DNA from: Candidatus Saccharimonadota bacterium
GTDB lineage: Bacteria > Patescibacteriota > Gracilibacteria > UBA1369 > 2-02-FULL-48-14
Assembly (NCBI GenBank): GCA_965230905.1
Contig: OZ246396.1
Span: 900,001-932,000, forward strand
Length of the DNA: 32,000 bases
Direction of reading: 5' to 3'
A program made the position numbers and the translations under genes. Of this stretch, positions 4,867 to 22,491 are shown piece after piece. Below the pieces are notes generated by a model that saw only the letters and a program-made list of their open reading frames with translations, ran no database searches and was not told where the DNA came from. Each line of letters starts with the position of its first letter. The first letter of the stretch is position 1.

Positions 4867-4875
4867 AGGTTTTTA

Positions 4876-5219: not shown

Positions 5220-5332
5220 TTTTTATACTGTCTCAAATGTCTCATCTAGCCTGAAACGCCACAATTGTGTCTCACGGCAAGAAACGGTAGGATAAATCCG
5301 TCCCAAGGGTACTAGACCCGAGTGGCCAGCCA
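5220..5332 (+). repeat. long-form repeat, copy A (conserved block 1 + variable 21 nt + 28-bp core)
   Basis: 113 nt aligning without gaps to 22379-22491, with 9 differences by manual alignment. Contains TGTCTCA three times (5229, 5238, 5268), the palindrome CACAATTGTG (5260-5269), TATACT (5224-5229), and the core AAGGGTACTAGACCCGAGTGGCCAGCCA (5305-5332). Confidence 0.9.
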
Positions 5333-5354
5333 ATAATATTTATTAAAATACTGG

Positions 5355-6116
5355 TTGTATAACTATACTTTTACTGGCTTAGTTCATCCCGAACGAGTTA
5401 GCTTTTCCGTAAGTGAAGATTTGCCTTTTCAAATAACACACCCCGGTTTTAAAGTGAACGGTATAAGCAAGTTAAGATTCGACAAATCAAAAATAACACT
5501 TAGTTTTGCATCAGAGATTGATTATAGTAAAAATGCTGACTGTAACTTAGAGACTCTAAAAAATATTTTTGAAGAAAATATAAGGCTTGTTATTGATTCT
5601 TATTGTTATATAAATTCTTACTCTTACGATGTAGAGATCACGAAGGTGGTATGTAAAGAGTTACATATTGATAATACTTTTGGAGTTAGAGGTGAATGGA
5701 ATGTAAACAAAACCAAAGACGAATGTACTGCGGAATTCACAGAAATTTTACGCTTATTTGATCGTCCAGAAAGGATGTTTTTAAAAGATGTTTTTGCAGA
5801 TTTTCGCCGAGCAATCAAATATCCATCTATGACTGCAGGTTTTTGCTTCCGTGCAGTTGAGACAATAAGAAAATTTTATTTTGAAGATCAATCGATTTCA
5901 AATGACGACAAAAGACGCGAACGTGGGTGGAAAGAGCTTGGAGAAACGCTAGGATTTAAAGAAGCTGATTTTAAAGAGATAAAAGATTTTGCTTTACCCA
6001 ATAGGCACGGTGAGCATCGACAGATTTCTTATGAACAGAGGGAAAGGATTATGAACTTCACACGATCCATAATTAATAAGTTAATTCAAATTATTAAGGG
6101 TACTAGACCCGCTTAG
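5355..6116 (+). CDS. hypothetical protein occupying a repeat-bounded cassette
   Basis: 253-aa ORF with a TTG start and no internal Met until late. No family recognised. The last codons KGTRPA and the stop are encoded by the downstream core repeat. Confidence 0.5.
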   Translation: MYNYTFTGLVHPERVSFSVSEDLPFQITHPGFKVNGISKLRFDKSKITLSFASEIDYSKNADCNLETLKNIFEENIRLVIDSYCYINSYSYDVEITKVVCKELHIDNTFGVRGEWNVNKTKDECTAEFTEILRLFDRPERMFLKDVFADFRRAIKYPSMTAGFCFRAVETIRKFYFEDQSISNDDKRRERGWKELGETLGFKEADFKEIKDFALPNRHGEHRQISYEQRERIMNFTRSIINKLIQIIKGTRPA

Positions 6117-6123
6117 CCAGCCA
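6096..6123 (+). repeat. 28-bp core repeat, copy D1
   Basis: AAGGGTACTAGACCCGCTTAGCCAGCCA matches the core at 25 of 28 positions, in the same orientation. Confidence 0.8.
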
Positions 6124-6241
6124 TTGAAATTGGCGATCCCGAAGGGATGGACGGTTTCAAACTGAGAAGATGAGGATGAGAACCCAGGGCTCGTAAAATA
6201 GCGAACGAAGTGAGTGTCATCCCTCACCCCCAGCAATGATT

Positions 6242-6298
6242 TGCATGACAAAGCCTTGTGATCCGCAAAGCTAGCTTGGACGTGCATGCGGAGATACA
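6242..6298 (+). repeat. second conserved module (M2), copy 1
   Basis: TGCATGACAAAGCCTTGTGATCCGCAAAGCTAGCTTGGACGTGCATGCGGAGATACAG aligns to 11311-11369. The 27-nt centre CTTGTGATCCGCAAAGCTAGCTTGGAC (6255-6281) is identical to 11327-11353. Confidence 0.65.
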
Positions 6299-6340
6299 GT
6301 TGAATTTACTCCTTATAGAGTTTTTGGAAATAGCCCCTAT

Positions 6341-6374
6341 TACTAGACCCGTAGAGGTAGCTTGGACTGGCATG
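6341..6374 (+). repeat. hybrid repeat fragment (core centre joined to the M2 3' part)
   Basis: TACTAGACCCG (6341-6351) is identical to the core centre. The following TAGCTTGGACTGGCATG resembles the M2 segment TAGCTTGGACGTGCATG. Confidence 0.4.
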
Positions 6375-6436
6375 ATGGGAAAATCGCCTTTCGATTTTTT
6401 TTGTTTACACTCCAAAGAAGTATTAATCTTATATCC

Positions 6437-6694
6437 ATGTCTAATGAGTATAGAAATAACCATTACATCCCTCAGTGGCATCAAAAACGCTTTATTCCTC
6501 CTGGACAACAGGATCAGGACCTTTACTACCTTGAATTAAAACCAAGAGCATTTATTGATCCCCGTGGTGTCATTCATCAAATTGATCCGTTACATCAGTA
6601 AGGAACTAGGCTTTGTGTTGTTGAGAAGGATTTGTATACCCGTCAGTTTGGGACTGGTCTATCTACAGATGCGGAGAGTTATAGACAACATTAG
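6437..6694 (+). pseudogene. DUF4238-family gene remnant (in-frame stop, 3' truncated)
   Basis: MSNEYRNNHYIPQWHQKRFIP carries the N-terminal HY[IV]PQ signature of DUF4238. An in-frame TAA lies at 6599-6601. The frame continues GTRLCVVEKDLYTRQF to a TAG at 6692-6694. This is far shorter than the roughly 300 aa typical of the family. Confidence 0.55.
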
Positions 6695-6761
6695 AACCGC
6701 CATCGCGGCTAATCATATACAGTTTAAGTGGTTTGCAAAAACAGTGCTGGGCTTGTAGGAC

Positions 6762-7385
6762 TTATTGAATTTCCCTTAGAGATTTGAAGGCTCCTTCAAC
6801 AGAAATCGTCACTGTTACTGCTGAGCCAGTGCGATTTCTCCAAAACCAACCATGTGTTCCGTCGAATGCGGCAGTGATGGTTCCAGACATTTCGGTTTCA
6901 TCTCGCCCATCGTCGTATTCAAAATTTGAGCCTGTAGAGCTTTCGCCATGAACATTGTAGTTCAGGGCTCCTCCTTCTGTTTTCCATGTGTATTCAATTT
7001 CACTGTCTTTAGACATATCGACTTTGACTTCGGCCCATCCATCAGCTGCAATCGTTACCGTAAGTGAATCTTCATTTGCTTCACTACTGTTTTCTTCCTC
7101 TTCTTCCACAGCATCTTCACTTGGGACTTCATCCTCCATCGATTCTTCGAGAGCAAGTTGCTTCTCCTCCTGCATTTGAGCCTCTTCTTGAAGGGACTGT
7201 TTGATCTCACCCATCTCTGTTAAACCAAGCACTCTGCCTACTCTTAAAATGTCGATTCCATATTCAGCAGGCAAAACAATGGTGACAAGAATGACCAGAG
7301 CAATAATCCCTGCTCGTTTAGTAGACTTCTTCAGCTGCTCAGAAGAAGGTAATTCGTCCAAAGTAGGTTTGTGTGAGTTGTTCAT
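6762..7385 (-). CDS. membrane-anchored protein with acidic linker and beta-rich C-terminal domain
   Basis: 207 aa with a single TM (AGIIALVILVTIVLPA), an E/D-rich linker (EEEEENSSEANED) and a C-terminal domain. It starts 3 nt after the stop of the upstream HupE/UreJ gene. Confidence 0.6.
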   Translation of the reverse strand: MNNSHKPTLDELPSSEQLKKSTKRAGIIALVILVTIVLPAEYGIDILRVGRVLGLTEMGEIKQSLQEEAQMQEEKQLALEESMEDEVPSEDAVEEEEENSSEANEDSLTVTIAADGWAEVKVDMSKDSEIEYTWKTEGGALNYNVHGESSTGSNFEYDDGRDETEMSGTITAAFDGTHGWFWRNRTGSAVTVTISVEGAFKSLREIQ

Positions 7386-7388
7386 AAT

Positions 7389-8156
7389 TTAGAAAATATT
7401 AATGAATAGACCTGTAATTTGGTAGCCAACCAGTACAAAGCCCGCCGTCATAAGTGCTACATTAGCGGTGTAGGCATACCTCCAAAAGCTGGATGTGCGT
7501 CGCCAAGCGTTCATGGCAATCAAAATGGCACCCAATGCCAAGAGTTGACCAATCTCCACTCCCACATTGAAGGAGATCAAGTTCGGCAATAGACCATCGG
7601 GGGACAACTCGTATTCCTGTACTTTCGTGGCTAAACCGAACCCATGGAAAAGTCCAAAGATAAGGGTTGCAATCTTTGTATTGGGTTGATAGCCAAGCCA
7701 TCGTTGAAAAGCTCCTAAGTTATCCAAGCCCTTGTAAGCCACCGACAGACCGATGATCGCATCAATGATGTAGGCATTAATGCTGATATTGAAGAACACG
7801 CCTCCGAGCAAAGTAATAACGTGCCCGAGCGCAAAGAGAGAAACGTAAATTCCAATATCCTTATTTTTGTACAAAAAGAAAATGACTCCTAGGATGAAAA
7901 GCAGGTGATCATAACCCGTGACCATATGCTTTGCACCCAGGTAAATAAATGGCAGAATATTCACACCAGAGATTTCTTGAATATACCCTTTGTCTCCTGT
8001 GGTAACACCGTGAGCCAAAGCATCAGGAACAAAAAGTAAAAGCACCGCGAGGAATAAAGATAGAGAGCTTAAAACACGAACCCTCCGATCCGTGAATAAA
8101 AGTGATAAAAGCGTGGTCAAAGTGAGTGGTGTTATTGGTTTGTACGCTAAGGACAT
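7389..8156 (-). CDS. HupE/UreJ-family metal (Ni/Co-type) transport membrane protein
   Basis: The signal peptide ends ...ALAHG. The segment GAKHMVTGYDHLLFILGVIFFL and the multi-TM layout are typical of HupE/UreJ_2. Confidence 0.8.
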   Translation of the reverse strand: MSLAYKPITPLTLTTLLSLLFTDRRVRVLSSLSLFLAVLLLFVPDALAHGVTTGDKGYIQEISGVNILPFIYLGAKHMVTGYDHLLFILGVIFFLYKNKDIGIYVSLFALGHVITLLGGVFFNISINAYIIDAIIGLSVAYKGLDNLGAFQRWLGYQPNTKIATLIFGLFHGFGLATKVQEYELSPDGLLPNLISFNVGVEIGQLLALGAILIAMNAWRRTSSFWRYAYTANVALMTAGFVLVGYQITGLFINIF

Positions 8157-8181
8157 GGACGTGCGAATTTTATGGGACTAG

Positions 8182-8203
8182 TATATGAGCAAGTGCTCAT
8201 ATA
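8182..8203. promoter_or_regulatory. 10-2-10 palindrome TATATGAGCA-AG-TGCTCATATA; candidate ArsR/SmtB operator in a divergent promoter region
   Basis: Perfect inverted repeat between hupE-like (minus) and arsR-like (plus). It overlaps TATAAT at 8200-8205, which lies 10 nt upstream of the ATG at 8216. Confidence 0.6.
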
Positions 8204-8215
8204 ATCAACTCGTTT

Positions 8216-8611
8216 ATGAAGAATCACGACAGCTCGCTTCGTGCGCTAAACCCTGGATCAGTAAAAAAAGCTGCGAATCGCATGCCGGACGAAGCTTTAC
8301 TCTCGGTCGTGGTGGAGTGCTTTAAGGCTTTGGGCGACCCCACGCGTGCAAAAATCCTTTATGCGCTTCGTAGAGGACCTCTTTATGTTCGTGATTTAGC
8401 CATCCTCGCAGAAGTTTCGGAATCCGGAGTCTCCCATCAGCTTCGTTTACTTCGCAACACACAGTTGGTAAAGGTTGAACGTGAAGGAAATAATAAAAAA
8501 TATTCCATCGCTTATGCGCATATCGTTACTCTGCTCAAGGAAGCGGAATACTACGCTGATCATATTCGCAATCATTTACCTGATCATTCCTCTAAACCTC
8601 GATCTAAATGA
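8216..8611 (+). CDS. ArsR/SmtB-family metalloregulatory repressor
   Basis: LGDPTRAKILYAL...VRDLAILAEVSESGVSHQLRLLRNTQLVKVEREGNNKKYSI is the canonical ArsR wHTH. Its stop overlaps the next start (ATGA at 8608-8611). Confidence 0.9.
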   Translation: MKNHDSSLRALNPGSVKKAANRMPDEALLSVVVECFKALGDPTRAKILYALRRGPLYVRDLAILAEVSESGVSHQLRLLRNTQLVKVEREGNNKKYSIAYAHIVTLLKEAEYYADHIRNHLPDHSSKPRSK

Positions 8612-10449
8612 AAATTCTACGCACTTTCTTTAAAGCTCAATATCTTTGGGAGCTCCTGCGAATTGCCGTAGTGGGATTTGCGAGTCTTTTGTTTTACTTT
8701 GATATCCTGCCTTTGATTGGACTTTTAATTGCCATAGCTTTTGGACTTTATTCTCTTCTCAAAGGAGGTGTCCTTGCTCTTATTCATGAGCATAAGGTGG
8801 GAACAGAAATTTTCATATCGGTAGCTGTGGTGGTATCGGTTTTAGGTCAGGAATATTTGGCGGGTTCAGTGGTTTTAATGATTATCCTCATTGCGGAGTA
8901 CATCGCCAGTGCTAGTGGAGAAAGCGCGCGAGCTTCCATTAAAGAGCTGGTTGGTTCTGTGCCCAAAACAGCTCTGCTTATGCGTGGTGATAAAGAAAAA
9001 AATATTGCGATCGAAAGCTTGAAAGTTGGAGACATAGTTCTTGTGCGAGCGGGAGAGAAAATTCCAGTGGATGGCACTGTAGTGGGAGGCACGGCTTCTG
9101 TGAATCAAGCGCCTATTACAGGGGAAAGCACTCCTCAGGAAAAAGCGAAGGGCAGTGAGGTTTTCGCTGGAACGATTCTAGAGATTGGTGCTTTGGATAT
9201 TAAAATGACCAAGGCTGGAAAGGACACAGTGTTTTCGCGCATCATTGCTTTGGTGGAAGAAGCGCAAAGCCACCAAGCACCCATTGAAAAATTCACGGAT
9301 AAAGTGTCTTCTTACCTCATTCCCATCGTTTTTGTCTTTGTAGGTTTGGTCTACTTCTTTACTCGAGACATTCAGCTCGTCATTGCTCTTCTTATTTTTA
9401 CTTCTCCCGCGGAATTGGGGCTTGCTACACCGCTGGTTACCATTGCTGGAATTGCTAGAGGGGCTCGCGAAGGAATACTCATTAAAGGAGGGCTTTATTT
9501 GGAGGAAATGGCGCACATCAAGACCGTGGTTTTTGATAAGACCGGAACTTTGACCCTTGGCCAACCTGCTCTGGAGCGAGTACAGGTTTTGGACACTTCC
9601 CTTACCGAAAAACACATTGTGGAGCTTGCTGCGGCTTTGGAACGTCGTTCGAGTCATCCTCTCGCCAAAGCAGTTTTAGACTATGCCAAGAAAGAAAAAC
9701 TTTCTATCCCCGAACCCAGTGATTTTTTGGTGATTAAAGGGCGTGGGGTTCACGGCAAGGTGAAAGGTGAAAAAGTGATCTTGGGAAATGCAGCTTTCTT
9801 AAAAGAACAGAAGATTTCGATCCCCAAAGATAAAGCCACAGGGAATGAGACACTCGTTTACCTAGCGAATGATGAGAAGGTACTCGGACTTCTTTATTTT
9901 TCAGACACTATTCGGCCCGAAGCAAAAGCCAGTCTTAAACAGCTCACCAAGAGCGGAATTGAACACATCGTCATGCTCACGGGAGACAATGAGGCAACAG
10001 CTACTTTTGTTGCCAAGGAACTCGGAATCAAGGACTTTAGATATGAACTGCTTCCGGAAGATAAAATCCGAATCATTAAAGAGTTACAAAAGAATGGAGA
10101 AAGAGTAGCTATGGTCGGAGATGGGATCAACGATGCCCCGGCTCTTGTTCAATCAAATGTAGGCATTGCCATGGGTGCGATGGGAACAGAAGCTGCGATG
10201 GAGGCCGCTGATATTGTGCTCATGCAGGACCGCTTGGATAAAATTGCTGAGGCACGACTGCTCAGTCAAAAATCTTTCCGCACTATTAAGGAGAATATTT
10301 TTGTGGGCGTTGGGGTTGTGCATATCACTGGAATTATTTTGGTCCTTCTTAAAGTCCTTGGCCCCGTGGAGGCAGCAGCCATTCACCTAGTGCCAGACAC
10401 TTTGGTGTTCCTCAATTCAATTAAACTTTTACGAAAGAAATTGAAATGA
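8608..10449 (+). CDS. heavy-metal-translocating P1B-type ATPase (short form, no N-terminal HMA domain)
   Basis: Motifs DKTGTLT, SSHPLA, MLTGDN and GDGINDAPAL. The TM motif reads FTSPAELGLATP instead of CPC/SPC. Confidence 0.9.
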   Translation: MKILRTFFKAQYLWELLRIAVVGFASLLFYFDILPLIGLLIAIAFGLYSLLKGGVLALIHEHKVGTEIFISVAVVVSVLGQEYLAGSVVLMIILIAEYIASASGESARASIKELVGSVPKTALLMRGDKEKNIAIESLKVGDIVLVRAGEKIPVDGTVVGGTASVNQAPITGESTPQEKAKGSEVFAGTILEIGALDIKMTKAGKDTVFSRIIALVEEAQSHQAPIEKFTDKVSSYLIPIVFVFVGLVYFFTRDIQLVIALLIFTSPAELGLATPLVTIAGIARGAREGILIKGGLYLEEMAHIKTVVFDKTGTLTLGQPALERVQVLDTSLTEKHIVELAAALERRSSHPLAKAVLDYAKKEKLSIPEPSDFLVIKGRGVHGKVKGEKVILGNAAFLKEQKISIPKDKATGNETLVYLANDEKVLGLLYFSDTIRPEAKASLKQLTKSGIEHIVMLTGDNEATATFVAKELGIKDFRYELLPEDKIRIIKELQKNGERVAMVGDGINDAPALVQSNVGIAMGAMGTEAAMEAADIVLMQDRLDKIAEARLLSQKSFRTIKENIFVGVGVVHITGIILVLLKVLGPVEAAAIHLVPDTLVFLNSIKLLRKKLK

Positions 10450-11228
10450 CGCTACTCTCTGCGCTTATCTTAGGTCTTGTTGAAGGATTCACGGAATTTT
10501 TACCTATTTCCTCAACTGCTCACCTCATCCTTACGGGAAAAGTCCTTGGACTGGACCAAAGTGAGTATTTAAAAAGCTTCGAAATAATTATTCAACTTGG
10601 AGCCATTTTGGCAGTGGTTTGTATGTATTGGAAGGAGCTCTTAAAGGTGGAGGTCTTGAAACGACTTTTTGTGGCGTTCGTGCCTACTGGACTTCTGGGG
10701 CTGATTTTTTATAAATTCATTAAACTTTACCTCTTTGAAAGCCTTCCCATTCTGCTGTGGGCTCTTTTAATTGGAGGAATTTTCTTAATCATTTTCGAGA
10801 AAGTCACAAAAGAAAGGTCTGGTGAATTGAGTTTAGAAAAAATTCCTTATAAAGCCTGCCTTTGGATTGGCTTATTCCAGTCCTTAGCTATGGTTCCAGG
10901 AGTTTCTCGTTCGGGAGCTACGATTATCGGGGGTTTGATATTCGGTCTGCCTAAAAAGACCATTGTGGAGTTTTCCTTCCTCCTTGCTGTTCCAACTATG
11001 CTCGCGGCGAGTGGTTTAGACCTTTTAAAGAATTCAAACTCTTTTAGTGCAGATCAAGCATTGTTTTTGATTGTGGGCTTCGTGACTTCCTTCCTAATGG
11101 CTCTATTCAGTATAAAATTCCTACTTTCCATTTTGCGAAAACAGACTTTCACTCTCTTTGGGATTTATAGGATAGCTCTGGCTACACTTTTCTTTTTTAT
11201 ACTATCCTATCTACCTCCTTTAGGATGA
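10446..11228 (+). CDS. uppP: undecaprenyl-diphosphate phosphatase (BacA/UppP)
   Basis: N-terminus LGLVEGFTEFLPISSTAHL, plus PGVSRSGATI and eight hydrophobic segments. Its start overlaps the ATPase stop (ATGA at 10446-10449). Confidence 0.9.
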   Translation: MTLLSALILGLVEGFTEFLPISSTAHLILTGKVLGLDQSEYLKSFEIIIQLGAILAVVCMYWKELLKVEVLKRLFVAFVPTGLLGLIFYKFIKLYLFESLPILLWALLIGGIFLIIFEKVTKERSGELSLEKIPYKACLWIGLFQSLAMVPGVSRSGATIIGGLIFGLPKKTIVEFSFLLAVPTMLAASGLDLLKNSNSFSADQALFLIVGFVTSFLMALFSIKFLLSILRKQTFTLFGIYRIALATLFFFILSYLPPLG

Positions 11229-11232
11229 AGCT

Positions 11233-11310
11233 GCCAAAGTTATGTCTCACGGCAAGAACTAATAGGGTGACACCGTTTCTAAGGGCTAGGCTAAGTGGCG
11301 TGCCATTAGG
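11233..11310 (+). repeat. degenerate long-form repeat, copy C (3' part of block 1 + variable region + diverged core)
   Basis: GCCAAAGTTATGTCTCACGGCAAGAA aligns to GCCACAATTGTGTCTCACGGCAAGAA of copy A. The following AAGGGCTAGGCTAAGTGGCGTGCCATT is a diverged core. It begins 5 nt after the uppP stop. Confidence 0.6.
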
Positions 11311-11369
11311 TGCATGAGGACAAAGTCTTGTGATCCGCAAAGCTAGCTTGGACATGCAAGTAGAGACGG
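11311..11369 (+). repeat. second conserved module (M2), copy 2, directly abutting the core
   Basis: Aligns to 6242-6298, and the 27-nt centre (11327-11353) is identical. Here it sits 5 nt after the core, against 118 nt in the other copy. Confidence 0.65.
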
Positions 11370-11390
11370 GCGGATCACCGCCTCTACTTT
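11360..11390 (+). terminator. GC-rich hairpin followed by TTTGATT (intrinsic-terminator-like)
   Basis: GTAGAG(ACGG)GCGG-ATCA-CCGCCTCTAC, then TTT. It lies between the convergent genes uppP and DUF305 and at the 3' end of the repeat unit. Confidence 0.45.
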
Positions 11391-11404
11391 GATTCAGCCA
11401 ACAA

Positions 11405-11992
11405 CTACTTCAACCAGCCTTTCATCATTTCGATTTCAGCACTTTGCGCATCAATGATCGCGTCAGCCATATTCTTAAGCTCCTGACGCTCGGTAATCAT
11501 TTGAACCCGCATCGCCATCATAATAGCCATTTGGTGATGCTCAATCATGCCTTCAATAAAGGCTTGGTCGAGGGCTTCACCTTCGAGAGTTGAAAGATCC
11601 GGCATCATCTCTTCATAGTCATCGCTGGCTTTGAAGTCCGCTCCGAACCACTCCTCGCCCCACGCTTCCATTTGAGCAATCTCAGCGCTCTGAGCGTCTA
11701 CAATATCCTGAGCCAAAGCCTTCAGATCTGCATTCTTAGACTTGGCCAAAATCACTTCAGCGGTATCAATGGCTTCCTGATGGTGAGGGATCATCATCGA
11801 AAGAAAGTCTTGGTCATCTTGAATCATCATCCCCATCATGTCGTCATCCATCATAGGATCCATGCCTTCCGTTGAGTCATCCATCATGGAGGAATCGTCG
11901 TCCATCATGCGGTCATCGTTGTTTTCGGTTTCGCATGCAGATAGAAGTATGGAACCTGCAAGAACTGAAGAAAGTAACATAAAGTTTTTCAT
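11405..11992 (-). CDS. DUF305-family lipoprotein with Met/Asp-rich N-terminal linker
   Basis: Lipobox LLSAC. Linker DDRMMDDDSSMMDDSTEGMDPMMDDDMMGMM. Two PHHQEAI / EHHQMAI repeats typical of DUF305. Confidence 0.85.
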   Translation of the reverse strand: MKNFMLLSSVLAGSILLSACETENNDDRMMDDDSSMMDDSTEGMDPMMDDDMMGMMIQDDQDFLSMMIPHHQEAIDTAEVILAKSKNADLKALAQDIVDAQSAEIAQMEAWGEEWFGADFKASDDYEEMMPDLSTLEGEALDQAFIEGMIEHHQMAIMMAMRVQMITERQELKNMADAIIDAQSAEIEMMKGWLK

Positions 11993-12057
11993 TAAAAATT
12001 GGGATTAAGAATTAAGTTTAAACCAAGTTTCTTCACCACCCATGCTTTTATAATTGA

Positions 12058-12288
12058 TTAGATAATTTCTCCTTTTTTCTCAAGCATCATGTGGTGAATA
12101 GTGGCAATTTGGATCCAAATTGCGATGAGAATAAGAATTGCAGTGCAAGCTAAAGCGTCTGCCTTTGTAATTCCGAATACAAGGTTATCGGCTCCGCCGA
12201 GGACGGAAGCAGCGAAGGTAACGATTCCAGTGAATCCCACTAAAACGCTGATGATGTGCATCAATTTAGATAGTTTCATATTATTCAA
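12058..12288 (-). CDS. small 2-TM membrane protein
   Basis: 76 aa with two hydrophobic helices, 9 nt downstream of the YHS gene on the same strand. Confidence 0.5.
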   Translation of the reverse strand: MNNMKLSKLMHIISVLVGFTGIVTFAASVLGGADNLVFGITKADALACTAILILIAIWIQIATIHHMMLEKKGEII

Positions 12289-12296
12289 ATAAATGA

Positions 12297-12479
12297 TTAA
12301 ATAAGATATTTTTCCGGTTCACTGACGAATTGATCCTTGCAACCCGTACTACAAAAATAGTAGATGCATCCTTTGTGAGCGACTTGGAGAGTTTCCTCAG
12401 TAGGATTGAGTTCCATGCCACAAACTACGTCCTTAGCTGGAGATGAATTTTTATTACCGCAACATGATGAGTTTTCCAT
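12297..12479 (-). CDS. YHS/TRASH-domain metal-binding protein
   Basis: VCGMELNP...HKGCIYYFCSTGCKDQF is the YHS-domain Cys pattern. Confidence 0.8.
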   Translation of the reverse strand: MENSSCCGNKNSSPAKDVVCGMELNPTEETLQVAHKGCIYYFCSTGCKDQFVSEPEKYLI

Positions 12480-12646
12480 ATATTTAATTGTTATTGATGA
12501 GATAAATAAGCTCTACTAAACTACTGGTTTGCCGGTGTACAACTTTTGCTTTGAATTCTTGATTAAACATGAAGGGGTAGTAAAAGAGTCAAAACTCAAA
12601 GAGGGGAACCAAGGGCATAGTTTTTCTCATAAAATAGTTATAAGTT

Positions 12647-14739: not shown

Positions 14740-14773
14740 CGTTATGTTTAAAATGGTGGGATAAATTACTTCA

Positions 14774-15409: not shown

Positions 15410-15447
15410 TCCGGTATCTTTTGCCATAGACATCACTTAAAAAAAAT

Positions 15448-16368
15448 ATGAAAAAACTTTTCCCTTTCTTCCTCTCTCTTTCTTTAATTCTTTCTAGTTG
15501 CGCTCAGACTTCTATACCTGAGGAAGAGGTCGTTAGTACTCAAAGTCATCGGAGTTATGAAATTGAAGTTACTTCTGATCCAAGCACCTTTGAAACTGGG
15601 ATGGACGGAGTATTTACCTACAAGATTAAAAATGACTTAGGTGAAGTGCTTAAAGATTTTGAGGTGGCGCATGAAAAAATCATGCACTTTATCCTGGTGA
15701 GAAAGGACTTACAGGAGTTTCAACATGTTCACCCCACTTATAACGAAAATAGTGGTGAATTTTCTATAAACCTTGTTTTCGCTGAGGCTGGACCTTATCG
15801 TCTTTTCCCTGACTTCACACCTGGAGCGGACAACCTTCAGCAACTACCGGTAACTCTATCTTATGATCTTGATGTGGGAGATACGAGCGCCTATGTGTCC
15901 GAAAATCTTCTAGCCAATACGCTCCCTGTGGATATGGCGGAGTCTTATGAAGTAGAATACACCTTTGATCAGCTGAATCTTGAGCCTCAAGGTCCCGTTG
16001 AATACACTTTAACAATTAAGAAAAATGGGCAAATAGTCGACACTTTGGAACCTTACTTGGGTGCTATGGGACACAGCGTCATTCTTCGTGAAGGGGCGGT
16101 GGATTTCATTCATGCACATGCGGAAAGTGCGGGTCACGACATGAGCAGCATGGGAGAGATGAGCGAGACTTCAAGTATAAGTTTTGCGACGAACTTTCCT
16201 GAAGCAGGAATGTATAAAATATTCACTCAGTTTCAGCACGAAGAGAAAGTAGTCACTACGGAGTATATAATTGAAGTCGGCGGCTTAGAAGAGGCAGCAA
16301 GCCAAGCGGAAACCTCTGATCAAGAAGAACCTGTTCTTGAGATGGACCACTCAATGATGGGGCACTAA
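15448..16368 (+). CDS. lipoprotein with His/Met-rich motifs (candidate periplasmic metal-binding protein)
   Basis: Lipobox ILSSC. Motifs HEKIMHFILVRKDLQEFQHVHP, HAHAESAGHDMSSMGEMSE, and the C-terminal LEMDHSMMGH. Confidence 0.65.
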   Translation: MKKLFPFFLSLSLILSSCAQTSIPEEEVVSTQSHRSYEIEVTSDPSTFETGMDGVFTYKIKNDLGEVLKDFEVAHEKIMHFILVRKDLQEFQHVHPTYNENSGEFSINLVFAEAGPYRLFPDFTPGADNLQQLPVTLSYDLDVGDTSAYVSENLLANTLPVDMAESYEVEYTFDQLNLEPQGPVEYTLTIKKNGQIVDTLEPYLGAMGHSVILREGAVDFIHAHAESAGHDMSSMGEMSETSSISFATNFPEAGMYKIFTQFQHEEKVVTTEYIIEVGGLEEAASQAETSDQEEPVLEMDHSMMGH

Positions 16369-16429
16369 AATAGTATTTTGACAAATTACAGCTTTCCCAT
16401 TAAGGTACCGGCCAAGTACTATAAAAATT

Positions 16430-16822
16430 GTGAAAAAACTTCTTCATATAATTTTCGTTCTCATTGTTGGTTTTTCCCTAGCAGGTAATACTTGCTTTAA
16501 ATCCCATAGTTTTGTTCATACTGCTAATGCACACACCTCTTCTATAGATGTACAGGATCATGAAACGGAAGATTTCGAAGATAAAGAAGTTGTTAAAAGC
16601 CCCCATTGTTGCAATGAAATCGATTCAAGCGTGTCCAATGGTAGGGGTACATCTAAAATTGAAAATACAAATTCATTTAAACATATTCCCGATTTGAGCT
16701 GGTTTACAGCTCAAGATTTTTCCTTCACGCTAAATAATTTCACTACTGAAAATTGGCCATCGACGAGCTCTCAATTCCAGTCAAAAGCCTTCTGGTTAGG
16801 AACTATCGTTAAAAGGGAATAA
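16430..16822 (+). CDS. secreted hypothetical protein (GTG start)
   Basis: 130 aa with an N-terminal signal-like helix KKLLHIIFVLIVGFSLAG and a HCC motif. No family recognised. Confidence 0.45.
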   Translation: MKKLLHIIFVLIVGFSLAGNTCFKSHSFVHTANAHTSSIDVQDHETEDFEDKEVVKSPHCCNEIDSSVSNGRGTSKIENTNSFKHIPDLSWFTAQDFSFTLNNFTTENWPSTSSQFQSKAFWLGTIVKRE

Positions 16823-16900
16823 ATAAAATTCATTTTCATTTCTAAGCTCACCTTTTGATCTTCAGAAATATTAGTTTTTATTCAATTTACTTTTTTTTAT

Positions 16901-17038
16901 ATGTCGTCCAAAAAAATCTTCAGTGTTACTGGTTTAATTTTGTTCTTGCTAATTATTGCCGGATGCTCAGGACAAACAACTCAAAACGTAGATGAAAGTG
17001 AACCGCACGGACATAGTGATGAGGATGCCCATGAATAA
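16901..17038 (+). CDS. small His-rich lipoprotein (45 aa), not in ORF track
   Basis: Translation MSSKKIFSVTGLILFLLIIAGCSGQTTQNVDESEPHGHSDEDAHE. It has a lipobox (IAGC) and the tail HGHSDEDAHE. It lies directly upstream of the RND adaptor gene and overlaps its possible start. Confidence 0.45.
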   Translation: MSSKKIFSVTGLILFLLIIAGCSGQTTQNVDESEPHGHSDEDAHE

Positions 17039-17063
17039 AAGATTATTTTTAACAGATATTATT

Positions 17064-18986
17064 ATGAAAAATCTGAAAGCAATTGTTGTAAAAAATCAGA
17101 AATTAATAGTTGGTCTTCTTATCAGCAGTGTTCTTCTTGTTACCCCATTGGCCTTTGCGAGTCCAGGTCACGATGATGCCGCTGGTGAATCACAAACATC
17201 CGAATCTACTCCTTCATCACAATTAGGCACTATCCAAGAAACAGAATTGGAAAAATTAGGAATTAGTAACGTTTCTTTTGCAGGTGAAGTGCTCTCAACA
17301 GATGATGTACGGGTTCATCCGCTTGTTGAAGGTCAGCTCAATGAATTGAATGTAAAAATTGGCCAGTACGTAGAAAAAGGTCAAGTACTTGGCAGATTAT
17401 CTGTTGCACCAAATCCAGATTTAATTGCCACTTTAGCCGAAAGGGCAAAAAGTGCAGAACGGACAAGGTTACAAGTAATTGTTATCGAAAAAATTGCCAA
17501 TGAAAATAAACAACTGATTGATCAATTAAAAACTGTTCTTGATCGCGCAAAGGATTCGGCCATTCAAACTATTTATGCCCAGTCTGTACAAAATCTTAAT
17601 ATTGCTCAAGGTGCCTCACAGCAATTAACCTCGCAAAACGAAGTTAAAGACGCCGTCATCCAGTCAGCACAAGCCGAATATGAACAAGCACGGACAGCCG
17701 TTGATAGCGAATTGGTGAACGTGCGCACAGCTGCCGAGAAAGCGTATGTTGAATTTACGTCTATAGTATCGGATAACGTTGGTCTAAGTACAAATAGCAC
17801 AATAGATGAGGGTAATTTAAATGAAGCCTATGGGAAGTTTGATCAACAAACACGAAGAAATTTTGTCTCGGCAGTTCAAGCTTTTAAAGATGCATTTAAA
17901 GATGAGACCAAACTTCCAGAAAACGAAATAGCTGTTTTTTTTGATACGGCTGGTGAATTGCTCTTGAGTTCATACCCATCAACCTATGTTTCCGCTGAAA
18001 AACTTGAAGAGCTACGCGGGATTCTTACTGAAAATGAAAGAGATTATTATGAAGCTTTAAAGAATTATAAAGATGCCATTGGTGAATTAGCACAGAAACA
18101 AGCTGACTACGAAACAGTAAAGGCGGAACAGGAAAGAGACATTGTGGGTTTAGAAGTAGACGCTAAAAATGCTCAAAGTGCTTATGAAATAACCGAAAGT
18201 CTAATAGATGCGAAAAAAATCGAAATTGAAACTGATTTTGAGAAGCAAAAATTTGAATACGATAATCAGCTTCTTGAATTACTAAAAGAAAAATTACTTT
18301 ATCAAGCTGAGGCTGAAGCGGCAGAAGTGGCTTACCAGGTATTCGCTTCAAAGATTGGTGGTCAGGAAATTGTCGCTCTGAAGTCAGGATATGTATCGGG
18401 GATATATATGAATCTTGGCGATCATGTAACGCCGGAAACTGCTGTTCTTGCTATCACCGGAGATCCAAAAGCACCTAAGTTTGTCCGTTTTAAAATACCT
18501 GCCGATACTAAATTAGTGAGCGTTGGTGAAGAAGTTGATATCGAATCACCTAATTCTCAATTTGGAAAGACCAAGGCAATAGTGACTGGCGTCTCTCTCT
18601 CTCTGGATTCAAATGGATTTTTCTTAGCTGATGCCGATTTAAATATAGATGCCGATTTACCAGTGCATGCGAATGTACGGATAGTTCCAAACGCTCAAAA
18701 TAAGCTTCTCGTTGTGCCGCTTTCTGCTCTAGTGCTTGATGAAAATGGCAAATATAGTATATGGCTTGTCGATAAAGATAACATCTTACACAAAAAAGAA
18801 TTAACAATTGGAAGAACTTTTGGTGATCAAGTCGAAATTTTTGGGGGAGTTGCATTGAATGATCAATTCATTGTCAAACCTGCTACAGATTTGGTTGATG
18901 GGTCAGTGTGGGAAGGAACTGTACCAACAGAAGAAGTTGAAGAACCTGCTCCAGAGGGTGACGGACATGCTCATTCTCACGATTAA
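17064..18986 (+). CDS. RND efflux periplasmic adaptor (HlyD/CusB-like), unusually long
   Basis: Lipoyl/barrel-like segments (HPLVEGQLNELNVKIGQYVEKGQVLGRL; VALKSGYVSGIYMNLGDHVTPETAVLAI). A coiled-coil region of roughly 300 aa separates the lipoyl-like halves. The C-terminal tail is EGDGHAHSHD. The start is uncertain: the track gives 16992, and ATGs lie at 17031 and 17064. Confidence 0.8.
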   Translation: MKNLKAIVVKNQKLIVGLLISSVLLVTPLAFASPGHDDAAGESQTSESTPSSQLGTIQETELEKLGISNVSFAGEVLSTDDVRVHPLVEGQLNELNVKIGQYVEKGQVLGRLSVAPNPDLIATLAERAKSAERTRLQVIVIEKIANENKQLIDQLKTVLDRAKDSAIQTIYAQSVQNLNIAQGASQQLTSQNEVKDAVIQSAQAEYEQARTAVDSELVNVRTAAEKAYVEFTSIVSDNVGLSTNSTIDEGNLNEAYGKFDQQTRRNFVSAVQAFKDAFKDETKLPENEIAVFFDTAGELLLSSYPSTYVSAEKLEELRGILTENERDYYEALKNYKDAIGELAQKQADYETVKAEQERDIVGLEVDAKNAQSAYEITESLIDAKKIEIETDFEKQKFEYDNQLLELLKEKLLYQAEAEAAEVAYQVFASKIGGQEIVALKSGYVSGIYMNLGDHVTPETAVLAITGDPKAPKFVRFKIPADTKLVSVGEEVDIESPNSQFGKTKAIVTGVSLSLDSNGFFLADADLNIDADLPVHANVRIVPNAQNKLLVVPLSALVLDENGKYSIWLVDKDNILHKKELTIGRTFGDQVEIFGGVALNDQFIVKPATDLVDGSVWEGTVPTEEVEEPAPEGDGHAHSHD

Positions 18987-19006
18987 TAATTGCTCACTAA
19001 TTTTTT

Positions 19007-22000
19007 ATGCTCAACCAAATTATTCTCTGGGCGATCAATCATAAGTGGACAACTATTATTGTCTCAGCCCTGATAGCAGTACTCGGAATCTTCAGTTTGC
19101 TCACTATGAAGGTTGATGTATTACCCAATATAAACAAACCAACGGTCGCTATTTTTACTGAAGGAGAAGGTCTTGCGCCGGAAGAAATTGAACGTCTTAT
19201 TTTAACTCCAATTGAATCAGCAGTTGCTGGTGCCCCAGGAGTTGAGCGTATCCGAGGAACCGCTTCGTTTGGCCTTGCCATCGTTCAAGTCGAATTTAAT
19301 TGGGGGTCAGATATTTATCGTAACCGCCAAATCATTCAAGAAAGAATTGCTCAGTTAAATCTCCCTGAAGGTGCAAAACCAACGCTTGGACCTGTATCTT
19401 CAGTCATGGGAGAGATCATGTGGGTAGGTATATCTTCAAAGGAAGCTAATCTTGATGGTATGGACCTCAGAACTCTTGCTGACTGGACGATACGTCCTGC
19501 TTTATTACGCTTACCTGGAGTTTCGGATGTCATTGTTATGGGTGGTGATGTGCGTGAGTGGCAAATTAATATTAATGCTGAGCGACTTGCTCAATATGAA
19601 CTTACTGTAGAAGATATTGTAGAAAATGTTGAAGGTGCGCTACAGAATCGTGGGGGTGGCATTCTTGTAGAGAATGAACTTGAATACCCGATACGAATCT
19701 TGGTAGCTCCTAGTGAAATTGATGAACTTCAATCTCTTGGCGTGGGTTCTTTCAATGATACGCCTATAGTTTTAGGCGATGTAGCGAGCCTCATAGAAGG
19801 GCCAAGCCCCGTAAGAGGCGCAGCTTCTATTGATGGAAAAGAGGGAGTTGTGATGAGGATTGTTAAGCAGCCTGAAGCAGAGACTCTTGAGGTTACCAAG
19901 CTTGTTGATGAAACACTGGAGTCGCTTGAAAGAAGTCTTCCAGAGGGAATAGAACTTCACAATGACCTTTTTAGGCAAGAATGGTTTATTACTGCAAGCC
20001 TTGAAAATGTTATTGAGGCACTACGAGATGGAATAATCCTCGTGATTATTATTTTGATTCTTTTTTTGGCAAATACTAGAACAACTCTTATTACGCTGAC
20101 AGCGATCCCCATGAGTATTCTGGTCACCGCGATCGTATTCAAGCTCTTAGGTTTTTCGGTCAACGTTATGACTCTGGGGGGTATTGCGGTAGCGATTGGC
20201 GAACTCGTTGATGATGCTATTGTTGATGTAGAAAATGTCTTTACGAGACTTCGTGAATGGAGAAAAAATGGCAAACAAGAACCTCTGGAAAAAGTTGTTT
20301 TTAAAGCATCGAGCGAAGTTCGAAATTCCATAGTCTATGCGACACTGCTCGTAGCAATTGTTTTCTTGCCCATCTTTTTTATTCCAGGAGTAGAAGGAAA
20401 GCTTTTAGCTCCTCTCGGACTTGCGTATCTTACTTCACTTATTGCCTCATTATTTGTTTCTCTTACCCTCACACCAGCACTTTGCGTTCTCCTTTTAGGA
20501 TCAAGCAAAAAAAAGGAAACCCATGAAGAAACAAGATTTGTTCGATGGGTTAAGAAAAATATTACTCCTCTAATAGGCTGGAGCATTAATCATTCGCGCA
20601 CACTTATTACAGGAATTGTAGGTGGTCTTATGATTGCCATCGTGCTTTTCATGGCTGCCGGAAAAGAAGGTGTACCGCCTTTTAATGAAGGAGCGGTTAC
20701 GGTTGGGGTCGTTATGCCTGTAGGGACTGACCTTCAGACATCCAATGATTTTGCTTCTCAAGTTGAAACAAAGATACGTGAAATCCCTGGGATTGTACGC
20801 GTAAGTCATTTGACCGGCCGTGCGGGGGCAGATGCACATGATAGTGGCGCAAACACGAGTGAAATCCAAGTAACTTTTGATCACGGACTTGAAGAAGAGC
20901 GTACACGTCTATTTGGAGAAATTCAAAAGGTACTTGATGAATTTCAAGGTGCAGACTTTAGCCTTGGGCAACCAATTACTCATAAAATGGAAGAGCTCTT
21001 ATCTGGCGTTCGTGCTCCGATCGTCATTAAAGTATTTGGTGATGATCTTGATGCTATGAGAGAAGTAGCGGAACAAGTTCGGGATGAACTAAAACTTCAA
21101 CCTGGAGTTACGAATGCCCAAATTCCAAAAGAAGTACTCATCCCTGAATATCGGATATTTCCAAACCGTGAAAGACTCGGCTCACTTGGTCTGTCTTCAG
21201 GAGAAATCGCAGATGAACTTGAAGCCGGCCTCTTGGGTGTATCGGTGGGTCAGGTACAGCTTGGATCAGCTCAAGTACCCGTTGTAGTGCGCTATGACAT
21301 TTTCAGTAAAGGGAATATGGCCGCAATCAGAAATTTATCCTTTGCAGGAGATCAAGTTACTACATTGAACGACACTTCTGATATTCAAATTCAAGGAGGC
21401 TTAAACCGTCTTAGTCATGAGGGTGGAAAGCGAGTCATAATCGTAAGCGCTAATTATCAGGGAAAAGATATTGTTGGTGCGGTAGAAGAGGTAAAACAGG
21501 ATTTTGAATCCATAGAACTTCCACAAGGGATAACTCTTTCTTTTGAAGGAACATATAAAAGCCAAAAGGAAAATTCCCTGCTTCTTCTAATGCTATTTGG
21601 TGTCGGACTTTGCTTTATTTTTGGAATTTTGTATCACGCCTTTCGGTCAAGCGCTATTGTCATCCTTATAATGCTTAACATCCCAACCGCACTTATAGGA
21701 GGAATAATAGGGGTATGGGTAACTGGTGGTGTAATCAGTTTGGCCCATCTTATTGGTTTCATTTCTTTAGCTGGAATCGTTTCTCGAAATGGAATCATGC
21801 TAATTAGTCACACTATTAACTTAGTGAAAAAAGAAGGCTTACCATTCACACCTGAAACCATGCTGCGTTCAACTCTTGATCGAGTGGTGCCCGTACTTAT
21901 GACATCTTTGACTGCACTCCTTGCTCTTATTCCATTCTTATTGTCATCAGAGGCCCCAGGGAAAGAAATGCTTTATCCGTTAGCTGTTGTTATTTTTAGC

Positions 22001-22111
22001 GGTTTGACTGTATCAACGATTATTTCATTATTCTTAACCCCTTCTCTTTTCTATCGCTTTGGTAAAAAGACAATGCTTGCACATACCACTTCAATCGAAA
22101 GTTCAAATTAA
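19007..22111 (+). CDS. heavy-metal-efflux RND transporter (CusA/CzcA family)
   Basis: 1034 aa with 12-TM RND architecture. The TM4 motif GGIAVAIGELVDDAIVDVEN resembles the CusA segment [20 protein letters not shown]. Confidence 0.95.
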   Translation: MLNQIILWAINHKWTTIIVSALIAVLGIFSLLTMKVDVLPNINKPTVAIFTEGEGLAPEEIERLILTPIESAVAGAPGVERIRGTASFGLAIVQVEFNWGSDIYRNRQIIQERIAQLNLPEGAKPTLGPVSSVMGEIMWVGISSKEANLDGMDLRTLADWTIRPALLRLPGVSDVIVMGGDVREWQININAERLAQYELTVEDIVENVEGALQNRGGGILVENELEYPIRILVAPSEIDELQSLGVGSFNDTPIVLGDVASLIEGPSPVRGAASIDGKEGVVMRIVKQPEAETLEVTKLVDETLESLERSLPEGIELHNDLFRQEWFITASLENVIEALRDGIILVIIILILFLANTRTTLITLTAIPMSILVTAIVFKLLGFSVNVMTLGGIAVAIGELVDDAIVDVENVFTRLREWRKNGKQEPLEKVVFKASSEVRNSIVYATLLVAIVFLPIFFIPGVEGKLLAPLGLAYLTSLIASLFVSLTLTPALCVLLLGSSKKKETHEETRFVRWVKKNITPLIGWSINHSRTLITGIVGGLMIAIVLFMAAGKEGVPPFNEGAVTVGVVMPVGTDLQTSNDFASQVETKIREIPGIVRVSHLTGRAGADAHDSGANTSEIQVTFDHGLEEERTRLFGEIQKVLDEFQGADFSLGQPITHKMEELLSGVRAPIVIKVFGDDLDAMREVAEQVRDELKLQPGVTNAQIPKEVLIPEYRIFPNRERLGSLGLSSGEIADELEAGLLGVSVGQVQLGSAQVPVVVRYDIFSKGNMAAIRNLSFAGDQVTTLNDTSDIQIQGGLNRLSHEGGKRVIIVSANYQGKDIVGAVEEVKQDFESIELPQGITLSFEGTYKSQKENSLLLLMLFGVGLCFIFGILYHAFRSSAIVILIMLNIPTALIGGIIGVWVTGGVISLAHLIGFISLAGIVSRNGIMLISHTINLVKKEGLPFTPETMLRSTLDRVVPVLMTSLTALLALIPFLLSSEAPGKEMLYPLAVVIFSGLTVSTIISLFLTPSLFYRFGKKTMLAHTTSIESSN

Positions 22112-22155
22112 CGGAATTTGTTAAGGTTGTAGCAATTCGGATCAAATTTTTGAGT

Positions 22156-22192
22156 GAGGAGGAATTAGGGTGATTTTCACTAGTTCCTCCTC
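22156..22192. terminator. 13-bp-stem hairpin downstream of the RND gene (no clear U-tract)
   Basis: GAGGAGGAATTAG-N11-CTAGTTCCTCCTC with one mismatch, 45 nt after the stop at 22111. Confidence 0.3.
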
Positions 22193-22378
22193 TACGTCCT
22201 TATATTCCAAGAGTTCCATGACTTTTCCCTGCGTGTCTTTAGCCACCAATAAAACTGCTTCTTCATGTGGCATCAAGTTTTGAAGTTTGATCTAATTTTA
22301 GGATTGTCAGTGGTACCATGTCAGGATGATTACCCCGCAACTTTTTAGCCAATTTAGCAAGTCCGTGACTTCGCCTCC

Positions 22379-22491
22379 TTTTTATACTGTCTCAAATGTC
22401 TCATTTAGCCTGAAATGCCACAATTGTGTCTCACGGCAAGAATAGGTAAGATGAGACAGTCCCAAGGGTACTAGACCCGAGTGGCCAGCCA
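22379..22491 (+). repeat. long-form repeat, copy B
   Basis: Aligns to 5220-5332 at an offset of 17159 nt. The core is at 22464-22491. The variable 21 nt contain TGAGACA, which forms a 7-bp inverted repeat with the third TGTCTCA. Confidence 0.9.

Follow-up and report, generated by a model that had tools for sequence, protein, structure and literature searches.

The 32,000-nt stretch analysed here (positions 900,001 to 932,000 of contig OZ246396.1, from a Candidatus Saccharimonadota bacterium; hereafter the window) contains two copies, A (5220-5332) and B (22379-22491), of a 113-nt direct repeat on either side of a set of metal genes. Our analysis indicates that this repeat is probably the conserved right-end attachment sequence of Peribacteria integrative elements that are stacked one after another behind tRNA-Gln genes and moved by a large serine recombinase (LSR). 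The apparent metal island between A and B is best read as several stacked elements and not as one island with two ends. In what follows, the last 28 nt of the repeat, AAGGGTACTAGACCCGAGTGGCCAGCCA, are called the core, the 85 nt that precede them the arm, and the two together the long element.

Direct comparison of A and B gives a gap-free alignment over all 113 nt with nine differences (92% identity), at A positions 5246, 5257, 5284, 5285, 5290, 5294, 5296, 5297 and 5299, so that seven of the nine lie inside 5284-5299; identity ends exactly at both ends of the repeat and the substitutions are of the types C>T, A>T, C>A, G>A, A>G and T>A. This confirms the alignment on which the original prediction was built, and the motifs described there are likewise present: three TGTCTCA heptamers (at 5229, 5238 and 5268 in A, the first pair 9 bp apart), the palindrome CACAATTGTG at 5260, TATACT at 5224 and an ATG at 5237 that opens the frame MSHLA* in A and B alike. 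The third copy, C, is also real but had been taken to be truncated at its 5' side; a hidden Markov model (HMM) of the element matches it over its full length (11200-11307, E = 6e-10), so that C is a diverged copy and not a truncated one. When the 16-mer GGGTACTAGACCCGAG was allowed up to three mismatches, six matches were found, all on the + strand, against 0.06 expected. The 113-nt repeat is thus real and far beyond chance.

The core also occurs in the window without the arm, at 6096-6123, 23959-23986, 24467-24491 (a variant) and 25209-25226 (truncated after CCCGAG), and a partial core motif is found at 6342-6351. With A, B and C this makes at least eight co-oriented sites spanning 5220-25226, and A and B are therefore just two members of a longer series. 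All the core sites are on the + strand and lie between genes or at gene ends. A second repeat family, D5, is present at 6238-6374 and 11310-11368, and a 3' fragment of a tRNA-Gln gene (ATCCCTCACCCCCAGCaA) at 6219-6236. The window belongs to a 1.3-Mb contig from a Hainich groundwater metagenome. GC content is 38-45% over positions 1-25 kb compared with ~50% for the housekeeping genes between 27 and 32 kb, and since it is lower than in the flanking core genes the left 25 kb looks acquired. As a separate observation on the core, the hexamer at its positions 17-22 (window 6112-6117, for example), between GGGTACTAGACCC and CCAGCCA, reads either GAGTGG or GCTTAG/GACTAG, and the second form gives several cassette open reading frames (ORFs) their stop codon.

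A 21-mer of the core was found at 18 loci in species-representative genomes and 15 in metagenome contigs, with no matches in the viral contigs, which were scanned with the core and with the heptamer block. Labelled relatives are all Candidatus Peribacteria, Peregrinibacteria or "Gracilibacteria", save for a few short contigs in metagenome-assembled genomes (MAGs) of other taxa. Such contigs (L003, L004, L015, L016 and L018; L numbers are our labels for loci) had been binned in Gammaproteobacteria, Bdellovibrionales or Pseudobdellovibrionaceae MAGs and are probably mis-binned Peribacteria DNA. The HMM built from the 113-nt element was run on all loci and, after removal of duplicates, 30 loci with 65 core-containing copies were left. 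Two or more copies were present in 19 of these and in none of the 19 was orientation mixed, over 35 comparisons. The species-representative scan placed the sites in only one or two clustered loci per genome. All copies share a sharp right edge, ..GGCCAGCCA, and extend leftwards for 28, ~45, ~70 or 113 nt; 19 distinct copies of the long form measure 113 +/- 1 nt.

In a typical array (L024, L036, L027, L028, L011, L008, L001) the 113-nt element comes first and is followed by units of 139-1500 bp, each with one ORF of 70-250 aa whose stop codon lies at or within the next core; the ORF is on the array strand in 20 units, versus three on the other. Array cargo includes MazF, RelB/YafQ, AbiE, DUF1428, metal transporters and many uncharacterised proteins. 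Metal cargo beside the repeats in other loci comprises cation-efflux (CDF) genes three times, ZIP genes twice and multicopper oxidases twice, and the genes adjoining ten long elements encode FUR, HAD, SLH, DUF6119 and Schlafen proteins, a CDF transporter and others.

Individual units recur between genomes. The DUF1428 cassette of L024 (803-1346) is 91.5% identical to window 24190-24494, within the cassette 23987-24494, amid different neighbours, and is intact there and bounded by the same sites as the decayed window copy. An AbiE cassette in L026 (869-1765) matches window 24495-25236 at 83%, down to an odd left site, ...GGCCAG|TTTTT, that both have in common. A RelB/YafQ cassette is shared by L016 (1305-2010) and L024 at 86%, and a MazF cassette by L011, L017 (where it occurs twice) and L025. 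In these recurring cassettes homology begins and stops at the core and the neighbours differ. Across genomes the repeats sit exactly at synteny breaks and at the boundaries of cassettes and islands. The att-like character suggested in the original prediction therefore stands in kind, given these breaks and boundaries and the recombinase link set out below, but its geometry does not: A and B are best read as same-type (right) ends of different elements and not the two ends of a single 17-kb island. Neither an empty site nor an alternative junction at strain level was seen among Hainich groundwater assemblies, in which only the same arrangement occurred, together with contigs broken at the repeats. 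Three short-read contigs (L044, 1488 bp, L020 and L039) are broken exactly at repeats, and one broken contig equals just one cassette (window 22492-23986). These breaks come from assembly and are no evidence of a circle. In L045 (12962-17041), two full 113-nt elements flank argF-argG-argH (minus strand), and core biosynthetic genes can thus be cargo.

The arrays are linked to tRNA-Gln. ARAGORN places a co-oriented tRNA-Gln gene upstream of the array in seven loci (L001, L005, L009, L011, L012, L013 and L047); the tRNA-Gln genes of those arrays all end in CCCCAGCCA, and foreign DNA starts right after GCCA. The same cassette can follow either type of left neighbour. One that begins TGATCTGTACCCCAAAAAG... 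comes after tRNA-Gln in L012 and after a long element in L024, and the MazF cassette comes after tRNA-Gln in L011 and after cores at two sites in L017. The tRNA-Gln gene and the core or long element are thus interchangeable left partners, which points to strand exchange in or beside the sole stretch common to them, CCAGCCA. The core has 16 of its 28 nt in common with the last 28 nt of tRNA-Gln (permutation P ~5e-4), and both end in CCAGCCA. Its layout resembles a tRNA 3' end, with a T-arm-like GGG-TACTAGA-CCC, a 7-nt acceptor strand and then G + CCA, and in alignment the last 75 nt of the long element are colinear with tRNA-Gln. With just 16/28 nt in common, the flanking and internal repeats do not duplicate the 3' portion of the tRNA that is targeted; genuine tRNA-Gln fragments occur only once per array (window 6219-6236, and L045).

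A further set of sequences marks the other side of these junctions. The P' module, with the consensus WWACGGGCA..TTTGA..CCTATGACCC..CCTAGGG and D5 as a variant, occurs after tRNA genes and after cores alike. D5 follows the tRNA fragment 6219-6236 in the window and an intact tRNA-Gln gene in L047 and L001, and the m2 module follows the 3' end of a tRNA-Gln or tRNA-Ser gene beside an LSR gene in L049, L050, L051 and L053, cores or long elements in L026, L027, L036 and L045, and B in the window. In L045, too, the m3 module and tRNA fragment follow a long element, and the whole series of core, m3 module, tRNA fragment and left-end module is repeated there. Some 100-115 nt from the junction, the P' arm has a second GGTACTAGACC motif, which repeats the outer part of the core (window 6342-6351; L047 ~436-448; L049 ~11623-11648 and L053 13166-13183, the last two on the minus strand).

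The candidate enzyme is encoded outside the window. An LSR of 426 aa with Resolvase, Recombinase and Zn_ribbon_recom domains lies on the minus strand at window coordinates -9175..-7895, ~13 kb left of A, and is followed in the direction of the window by Hachiman genes, the large and small terminase subunits, two ParB-type or N6/N4 methylases and the window genes up to A. This LSR thus sits at the far end of the terminase/methylase/zinc-ribbon block from A. A search next to the LSR on the left margin of L038 gave neither a core nor a long element. The terminase/ParB-methylase/zinc-ribbon block followed by a long element is found in five genomes (that of the window and those of L006, L008, L045 and L046), the long element being 1.4-2.9 kb from the zinc-ribbon/HTH_17 gene when homologues of the 361-aa protein are used as block marker. 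LSR homologues are abundant in this clade, and in seven of seven LSR loci the gene is 0.2-2.3 kb from a tRNA 3' end, six times that of tRNA-Gln (L047, L048, L049, L051/L052, L053/L054) and once that of tRNA-Ser (L050). The 3' end of the LSR gene faces the tRNA in the contexts examined, and the GCCA of the tRNA is immediately followed by the P' module or by an evident variant; the P' module of L050 has a weak HMM match and was read directly from the sequence. One contig, k141_136660, covers such a unit from end to end: tRNA-Gln and the long element are 17.1 kb apart and the LSR is the sole recombinase.

Several observations concern the island that ends at A, which we call E0. The large terminase (E = 3e-69), the small terminase and the two methylases (L038 12874-14867, window ~-3833 to -1840) are conserved in the island and no capsid or tail genes were seen in it; E0 could be either a phage satellite or what remains of a prophage. 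The Hachiman pair (HamA and a DEAD-box, HamB-like helicase) adjoins the LSR (L038 15619-20209, window ~-9175 to -4585). Elsewhere the same slot holds type I restriction-modification genes (L045/L048, L051), a Shedu-like SduA_C gene (L049) or type ISP/MmeI-like genes (L050, L053), and it looks like a site at which defence cargo is swapped within one element family.

On this evidence we propose that elements would insert at the extreme 3' end of tRNA-Gln genes, with the core as a recombinase half-site that mimics the tRNA T-arm, acceptor strand and CCA, and with the crossover falling in or next to CCAGCCA. The P' module (or D5) would form the left end of an element and the arm plus core its right end. 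The enzyme is likely to be the LSR of the autonomous members, that is of phage-derived islands with terminase, ParB-methylases and variable defence cargo. On integration, P' would come to lie behind the tRNA and the long element distally; an element that subsequently entered at the same tRNA-proximal site would push the earlier one outward, with a core + P' junction between the two. The outcome would be a co-oriented tandem array in which each junction consists of a core and then the left end of the next element. Read in this manner, the window would run from E0, ending at A, through the DUF8168 cassette (5333-6123) and an attL-like remnant (6124-6236) to E1, ending at C, then E2, ending at B, and finally three increasingly decayed cassettes and the truncated core. 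As E1, E2 and the short cassettes are without a recombinase, they would have been moved in trans or be remnants. There is a gradient from an intact LSR element at the left to gene fragments at the right, which would fit an order in which the newest element is the one nearest the tRNA.

A number of findings weigh against this scheme. Serine integrases normally use sites of ~40-50 bp without arm sites and mostly target ORFs; they are not known to require arms of 85 or 120 nt, and the 85 conserved nt 5' of the core and the ~120-nt P' arm are unaccounted for by a serine-integrase model. Around the junction, the motifs GGGTACTAG (at -26) and CTATGACCC (at +20 to +28) form a partial mirror; dyad symmetry overall amounts to 8-9/28 and does not exceed chance. 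In L049 the LSR element at tRNA-Gln has no long element where one is expected. In the window's genome no intact tRNA-Gln gene was seen in the DNA examined, which reaches 0.6 kb past the LSR; the left end of E0 would there be a tRNA or core junction. WTACGGGCA is kept at ~17 of 63 junctions and most short cassettes have no recognisable P' arm; these cassettes, at 139-1500 bp with a single ORF and co-oriented 20 to 3, look more integron-like than island-remnant-like. Tyrosine recombinases were absent from every locus by what was a crude motif search (a regular expression), and from the top 25 Pfam families of 96 ORFs, the genomes not having been scanned whole. Excision or circular junctions were not observed at these loci. 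The arms, the dyad, the cassettes without P', L049 and the lack of an intact tRNA-Gln gene are the misfits that lead us to keep three rival explanations open.

It is possible, though we put it forward tentatively, that the system amounts to a Peribacteria serine-recombinase counterpart of the integron, in which one 28-nt tRNA-mimic half-site would capture, stack and reshuffle units ranging from one ORF to 17 kb, and the 85-nt heptamer arm would serve as a control region, either for a directionality factor or for transcription into the cassettes. Whatever its exact role, the arm most likely is a protein-binding region, since its length is fixed, its sequence is near-invariant and its heptamers change in concert. 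The first two heptamers change jointly with their 9-bp spacing kept: both read TGTCGGA in L037 (4126-4218), which has an LSR 43% identical, and both read TATCTCA in L011 (4238-4350), suggesting a sequence-specific, co-evolving binding protein. The TGTCTCA heptamers may serve as binding sites for an accessory or directionality factor. A length of 113 +/- 1 nt without RNA covariation is in keeping with protein binding rather than RNA structure.

Among the rivals, an integron-like platform served by a recombinase of its own, as yet unseen, would make the core an attC-like site and the 113-nt element an attI/Pc-like one, with the LSR islands as mere neighbours. It would account for the tight packing of short single-ORF cassettes with 20/23 on the array strand, for stop codons at or inside the core, for cargo rich in toxin-antitoxin genes (MazF, RelB/YafQ, AbiE) and small uncharacterised proteins, for the shuffling of cassettes among genomes and for the position of the long element, which is often first in the array (L024, L028, L036, L011). 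We nevertheless regard it as unlikely, given that no integrase adjoins any long element, that the core is without R''/R' inverted boxes (RYYYAAC...GTTRRRY) or a conserved left half for an attC hairpin, and that no sigma-70 promoter is predicted; 63 distinct junctions, when aligned, show an asymmetric 28-mer ending in GCCA with no GTT box at the cassette boundary. Long elements are also found mid-array after multi-gene elements (B and C in the window; L045; L016), and tRNA-Gln can substitute for the long element or core as left partner. That same substitution, with only CCAGCCA in common, is left unexplained if units are exchanged by RecA through 28-113 nt of portable homology after DNA uptake, the repeat otherwise acting in transcript punctuation or termination or in protein binding; nor would such exchange explain the fixed LSR-tRNA-P' architecture or the strict co-orientation with one sharp right boundary. 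We judge it distinctly unlikely, although the 28-nt core is identical across species whose proteins are only 52-68% identical, most short cassettes have no P' arm, and mosaic or decayed cassettes such as the YggS/DUF1428 fusion at 23987-24494 are common.

Could the 113-nt element instead be a gene for a tRNA-like small RNA with its own promoter, used as a chromosomal integration target, and the short cores its displaced 3' fragments, much as is seen at ordinary tRNA islands? The TATACT box at the 5' edge, the tRNA-sized 3' 75 nt colinear with tRNA-Gln and ending in GCCA, a single-sequence fold z-score of -2.7 on the + strand and nested left boundaries with a common 3' end, which are typical of tRNA-fragment repeats, would all fit. 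Rfam, however, gave nothing at the gathering threshold for the whole window and nothing for the repeat at E values up to 10 (22300-22600), the sole weak match being sR39 at 22325-22349, upstream of B. ARAGORN called no credible tRNA or tmRNA in the window, nor in A, B or C at a lowered (80%) threshold, and consensus folds of 9 and of 19 copies had a positive covariation term with 0-1 compensatory pairs. The element is, moreover, found in many different chromosomal contexts with 2-3 copies per array, and is tied to the distal end of mobile elements and not to a fixed locus, all of which makes an RNA gene very unlikely. Highly improbable is the geometry of the original prediction, in which one 17-kb metal-resistance island or transposon has A and B as its two ends, together with the idea of an outward promoter and a leader peptide. 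A and B do physically flank metal genes, at 92% identity, and metal cargo is common beside the repeats in other loci. The segment between them is, however, subdivided by C, a short core, a tRNA fragment and two P' modules, at least four further co-oriented sites continue to 25226, A is tied to the left-hand element in five genomes, and the two long elements in L045 flank argF-argG-argH instead. Transposon termini are made unlikely by the lack of terminal inverted repeats, target duplications and mixed-orientation copies. A promoter scan predicted no sigma-70-type promoter on the + strand at A, where the sequence 17 nt upstream of TATACT falls outside the conserved block, and the start codon of the mini-ORF MSHLA is not kept, being ATA in L011 and GCG in L016.

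Other candidates were tried and rejected. Against a Xer/dif reading, there is no GC-skew switch in the window and the sites are all co-oriented; pdif modules alternate in orientation, and the core is unlike the usual dif consensus. A dispersed repeat of the miniature inverted-repeat transposable element or repetitive extragenic palindrome type was dismissed, as there is no terminal inverted repeat and no target-site duplication, orientation is uniform and copies are confined to one or two clustered loci per genome. For a diversity-generating retroelement there is no reverse transcriptase gene in the window, and the A/B differences are not confined to adenines. Clustered regularly interspaced short palindromic repeats (CRISPR), Tn7 ends and elements of IS200/IS605 type were rejected on anatomy.

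How the proposed attachment system compares with known ones is best seen by taking these in turn. The tycheposons and tRNA-anchored islands of Prochlorococcus also integrate site-specifically, at a few tRNA genes, with a full-length tRNA on the proximal side and co-oriented partial-tRNA repeats inside the islands; newcomers displace older elements outward, degenerate remnants occur alongside cargo-only units, the cargo concerns metal or nutrient handling and defence, and the hosts have streamlined genomes (bioRxiv 10.1101/2020.12.28.424599). In that system 910 of 937 tycheposon-type elements use tyrosine recombinases (10.1101/2020.12.28.424599), whereas the only recombinase seen here is an LSR. 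A full-length tRNA on the proximal side is present here in seven array loci and six LSR loci; the window itself has a tRNA-Gln 3' fragment (6219-6236). The internal repeats here, unlike those of tycheposons, are a distinct tRNA-like sequence (16/28) that is borne by the element within a 113-nt conserved arm; there is no replication module seen, and many cassettes are single ORFs of a few hundred bp.

The staphylococcal cassette chromosome elements (SCC and SCCmec) are moved by LSRs (Ccr) into the 3' end of one housekeeping gene (rlmH) and have repeats of ~15-18 bp. An LSR, a 3'-end target, tandem cassettes with short co-oriented repeats, a recombinase acting in trans and resistance cargo are points of likeness. 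The SCC target, however, is a protein gene, SCC cassettes are kb to tens of kb in size and not single small ORFs, and SCC shows neither tRNA mimicry nor an extended conserved arm. Integrons and clusters of attC sites lacking integron integrases (CALINs) likewise have short, co-oriented, mostly promoterless-looking single-ORF cassettes that end in a recombination site, with toxin-antitoxin cassettes, shuffling among genomes and, at times, arrays with no adjacent integrase. The differences are that here no IntI, no R''/L''/L'/R' palindromes and no GTTRRRY were found, and that the site is an asymmetric 28-nt tRNA-3'-like sequence which multi-gene elements of 5-17 kb use as well. At the 3' end of fda in Streptococcus thermophilus, integrative and conjugative elements (ICEs) and cis-mobilisable elements (CIMEs) accrete by means of a tyrosine integrase, with direct repeats of ~27 bp and conjugative elements. 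Tandem accretion with direct repeats between the units is common to both systems, as are non-autonomous units, the CIMEs, that keep their att sites and are mobilised by an autonomous relative; the tyrosine integrase, the protein-gene target and the lack of cassette-sized units set that system apart. Serine integrases such as those of phiC31, Bxb1 and A118 have a minimal attP/attB of ~40-50 bp, usually within ORFs, with no long repeats and no arrays. As in serine-integrase prophages, a Resolvase/Recombinase/Zn_ribbon_recom LSR lies here at the edge of a phage-derived element beside an attachment site; unlike phiC31-type prophages, long direct repeats and arrays are present. Accretion itself is known, and what is novel is the combination of an LSR, a tRNA 3' end target, a tRNA-mimic half-site repeated in arrays and integron-like mini-cassettes. 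Literature searches on integrons and repeats in Peregrinibacteria and Patescibacteria, and on serine-recombinase prophages of the candidate phyla radiation (CPR), did not turn up an account of this system.

CPR bacteria, to which the uncultivated Peribacteria belong, have tiny genomes, and their gain of accessory genes is little understood. If our reading is right, a single tRNA-Gln-anchored site system gathers defence genes (Hachiman, restriction-modification and a PDC-M48B-like gene), metal-resistance, toxin-antitoxin and even arginine-biosynthesis genes at one or two hot spots in each genome, and would do so with a serine recombinase whose target, the 3' end of a tRNA, is not a usual one for this class of enzyme. 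At a practical level, AAGGGTACTAGACCCGAGTGGCCAGCCA is a concrete marker for flexible regions in Peribacteria MAGs that flags mis-binned contigs too, and a system that pairs a serine integrase with a well-defined, strongly conserved site lends itself to biochemical work.

The features of the window are collected in Table 1, in which A is taken as the attR of E0 (its right-end attachment sequence, P side); E0 extends left beyond the window.

Table 1. Elements, junction modules and cassettes in the window (coordinates in nt).
Feature	Position	Strand	Content and reading
E0, right part	1..5219	not assigned	361-aa zinc-ribbon/HTH_17 protein 1900-2985; candidate defence gene with metallo-beta-lactamase (MBL) fold 3844-4866
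Long element A	5220..5332	+	85-nt arm (TATACT, three TGTCTCA, variable stretch) and core 5305-5332
One-gene cassette	5333..6123	+	DUF8168 ORF 5355-6116, co-oriented with the array
m3 module, then tRNA-Gln 3' fragment 6219-6236	6124..6236	+	internal attL-type junction
Element E1	6237..11307	+	207-aa protein, HupE/UreJ, ArsR, P-type ATPase, UppP/BacA; ends in C
D5 module, left-end (P') arm of E1	6238..6374	+	second ACTAGACCCG motif at 6342-6351
Long element C	11194..11307	+	diverged full-length copy; read as right end of E1
Element E2	11308..22491	+	DUF305, YHS, CsoR-type repressor, amine oxidase, VTT-domain protein, resistance-nodulation-division (RND) pump and membrane-fusion protein
D5-type P' module of E2	11310..11368	+	directly after C
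Long element B	22379..22491	+	core 22464-22491; read as right end of E2
Two-ORF cassette	22492..23986	+	minus-strand ORFs of 140 and 307 aa, no family match; ends in core 23959-23986
m2 left-end (P') module	22493..22559	+	directly after B
Decayed cassette	23987..24494	+	YggS fragment fused to DUF1428 fragment; ends in variant core 24467-24491
Decayed AbiEii/AbiEi cassette	24495..25226	+	genes on minus strand; common to L026; ends in truncated core

The DUF8168 ORF has its stop codon inside the terminal core of its cassette, which is of the GCTTAG spacer variant. The order UppP and then long element, seen at the end of E1, is also found in L017, and pieces of E2, which itself ends in B, also follow cores in L015, L018 and L035. 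Neither the E1 cargo nor the E2 cargo includes a recombinase gene. At the right end of the array the truncated core (..CCCGAG|CTGAATCG) abuts the 3' end of a PRK-like gene at 25216.

The MBL-fold protein encoded at 3844-4866 (minus strand) matches the candidate defence family PDC-M48B (E = 1.6e-78), with weaker matches to LmuA and DRT-associated MBL models, and its gene overlaps that of a 250-aa membrane protein at 3156-3908. This gene and that of a 90-aa protein form a pair upstream of A which was tried as a novel recombinase and rejected: the pair is not kept beside other long elements, and the MBL protein has the defence-family match just given. A 35-nt inverted repeat (10948-10982 / 19943-19977, 80% complementary) within the UppP and RND pump genes is probably due to chance. 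Just outside the array, before the rise in GC, there is an MNT-HEPN (nucleotidyltransferase/HepT) toxin-antitoxin pair at 26084-26878.

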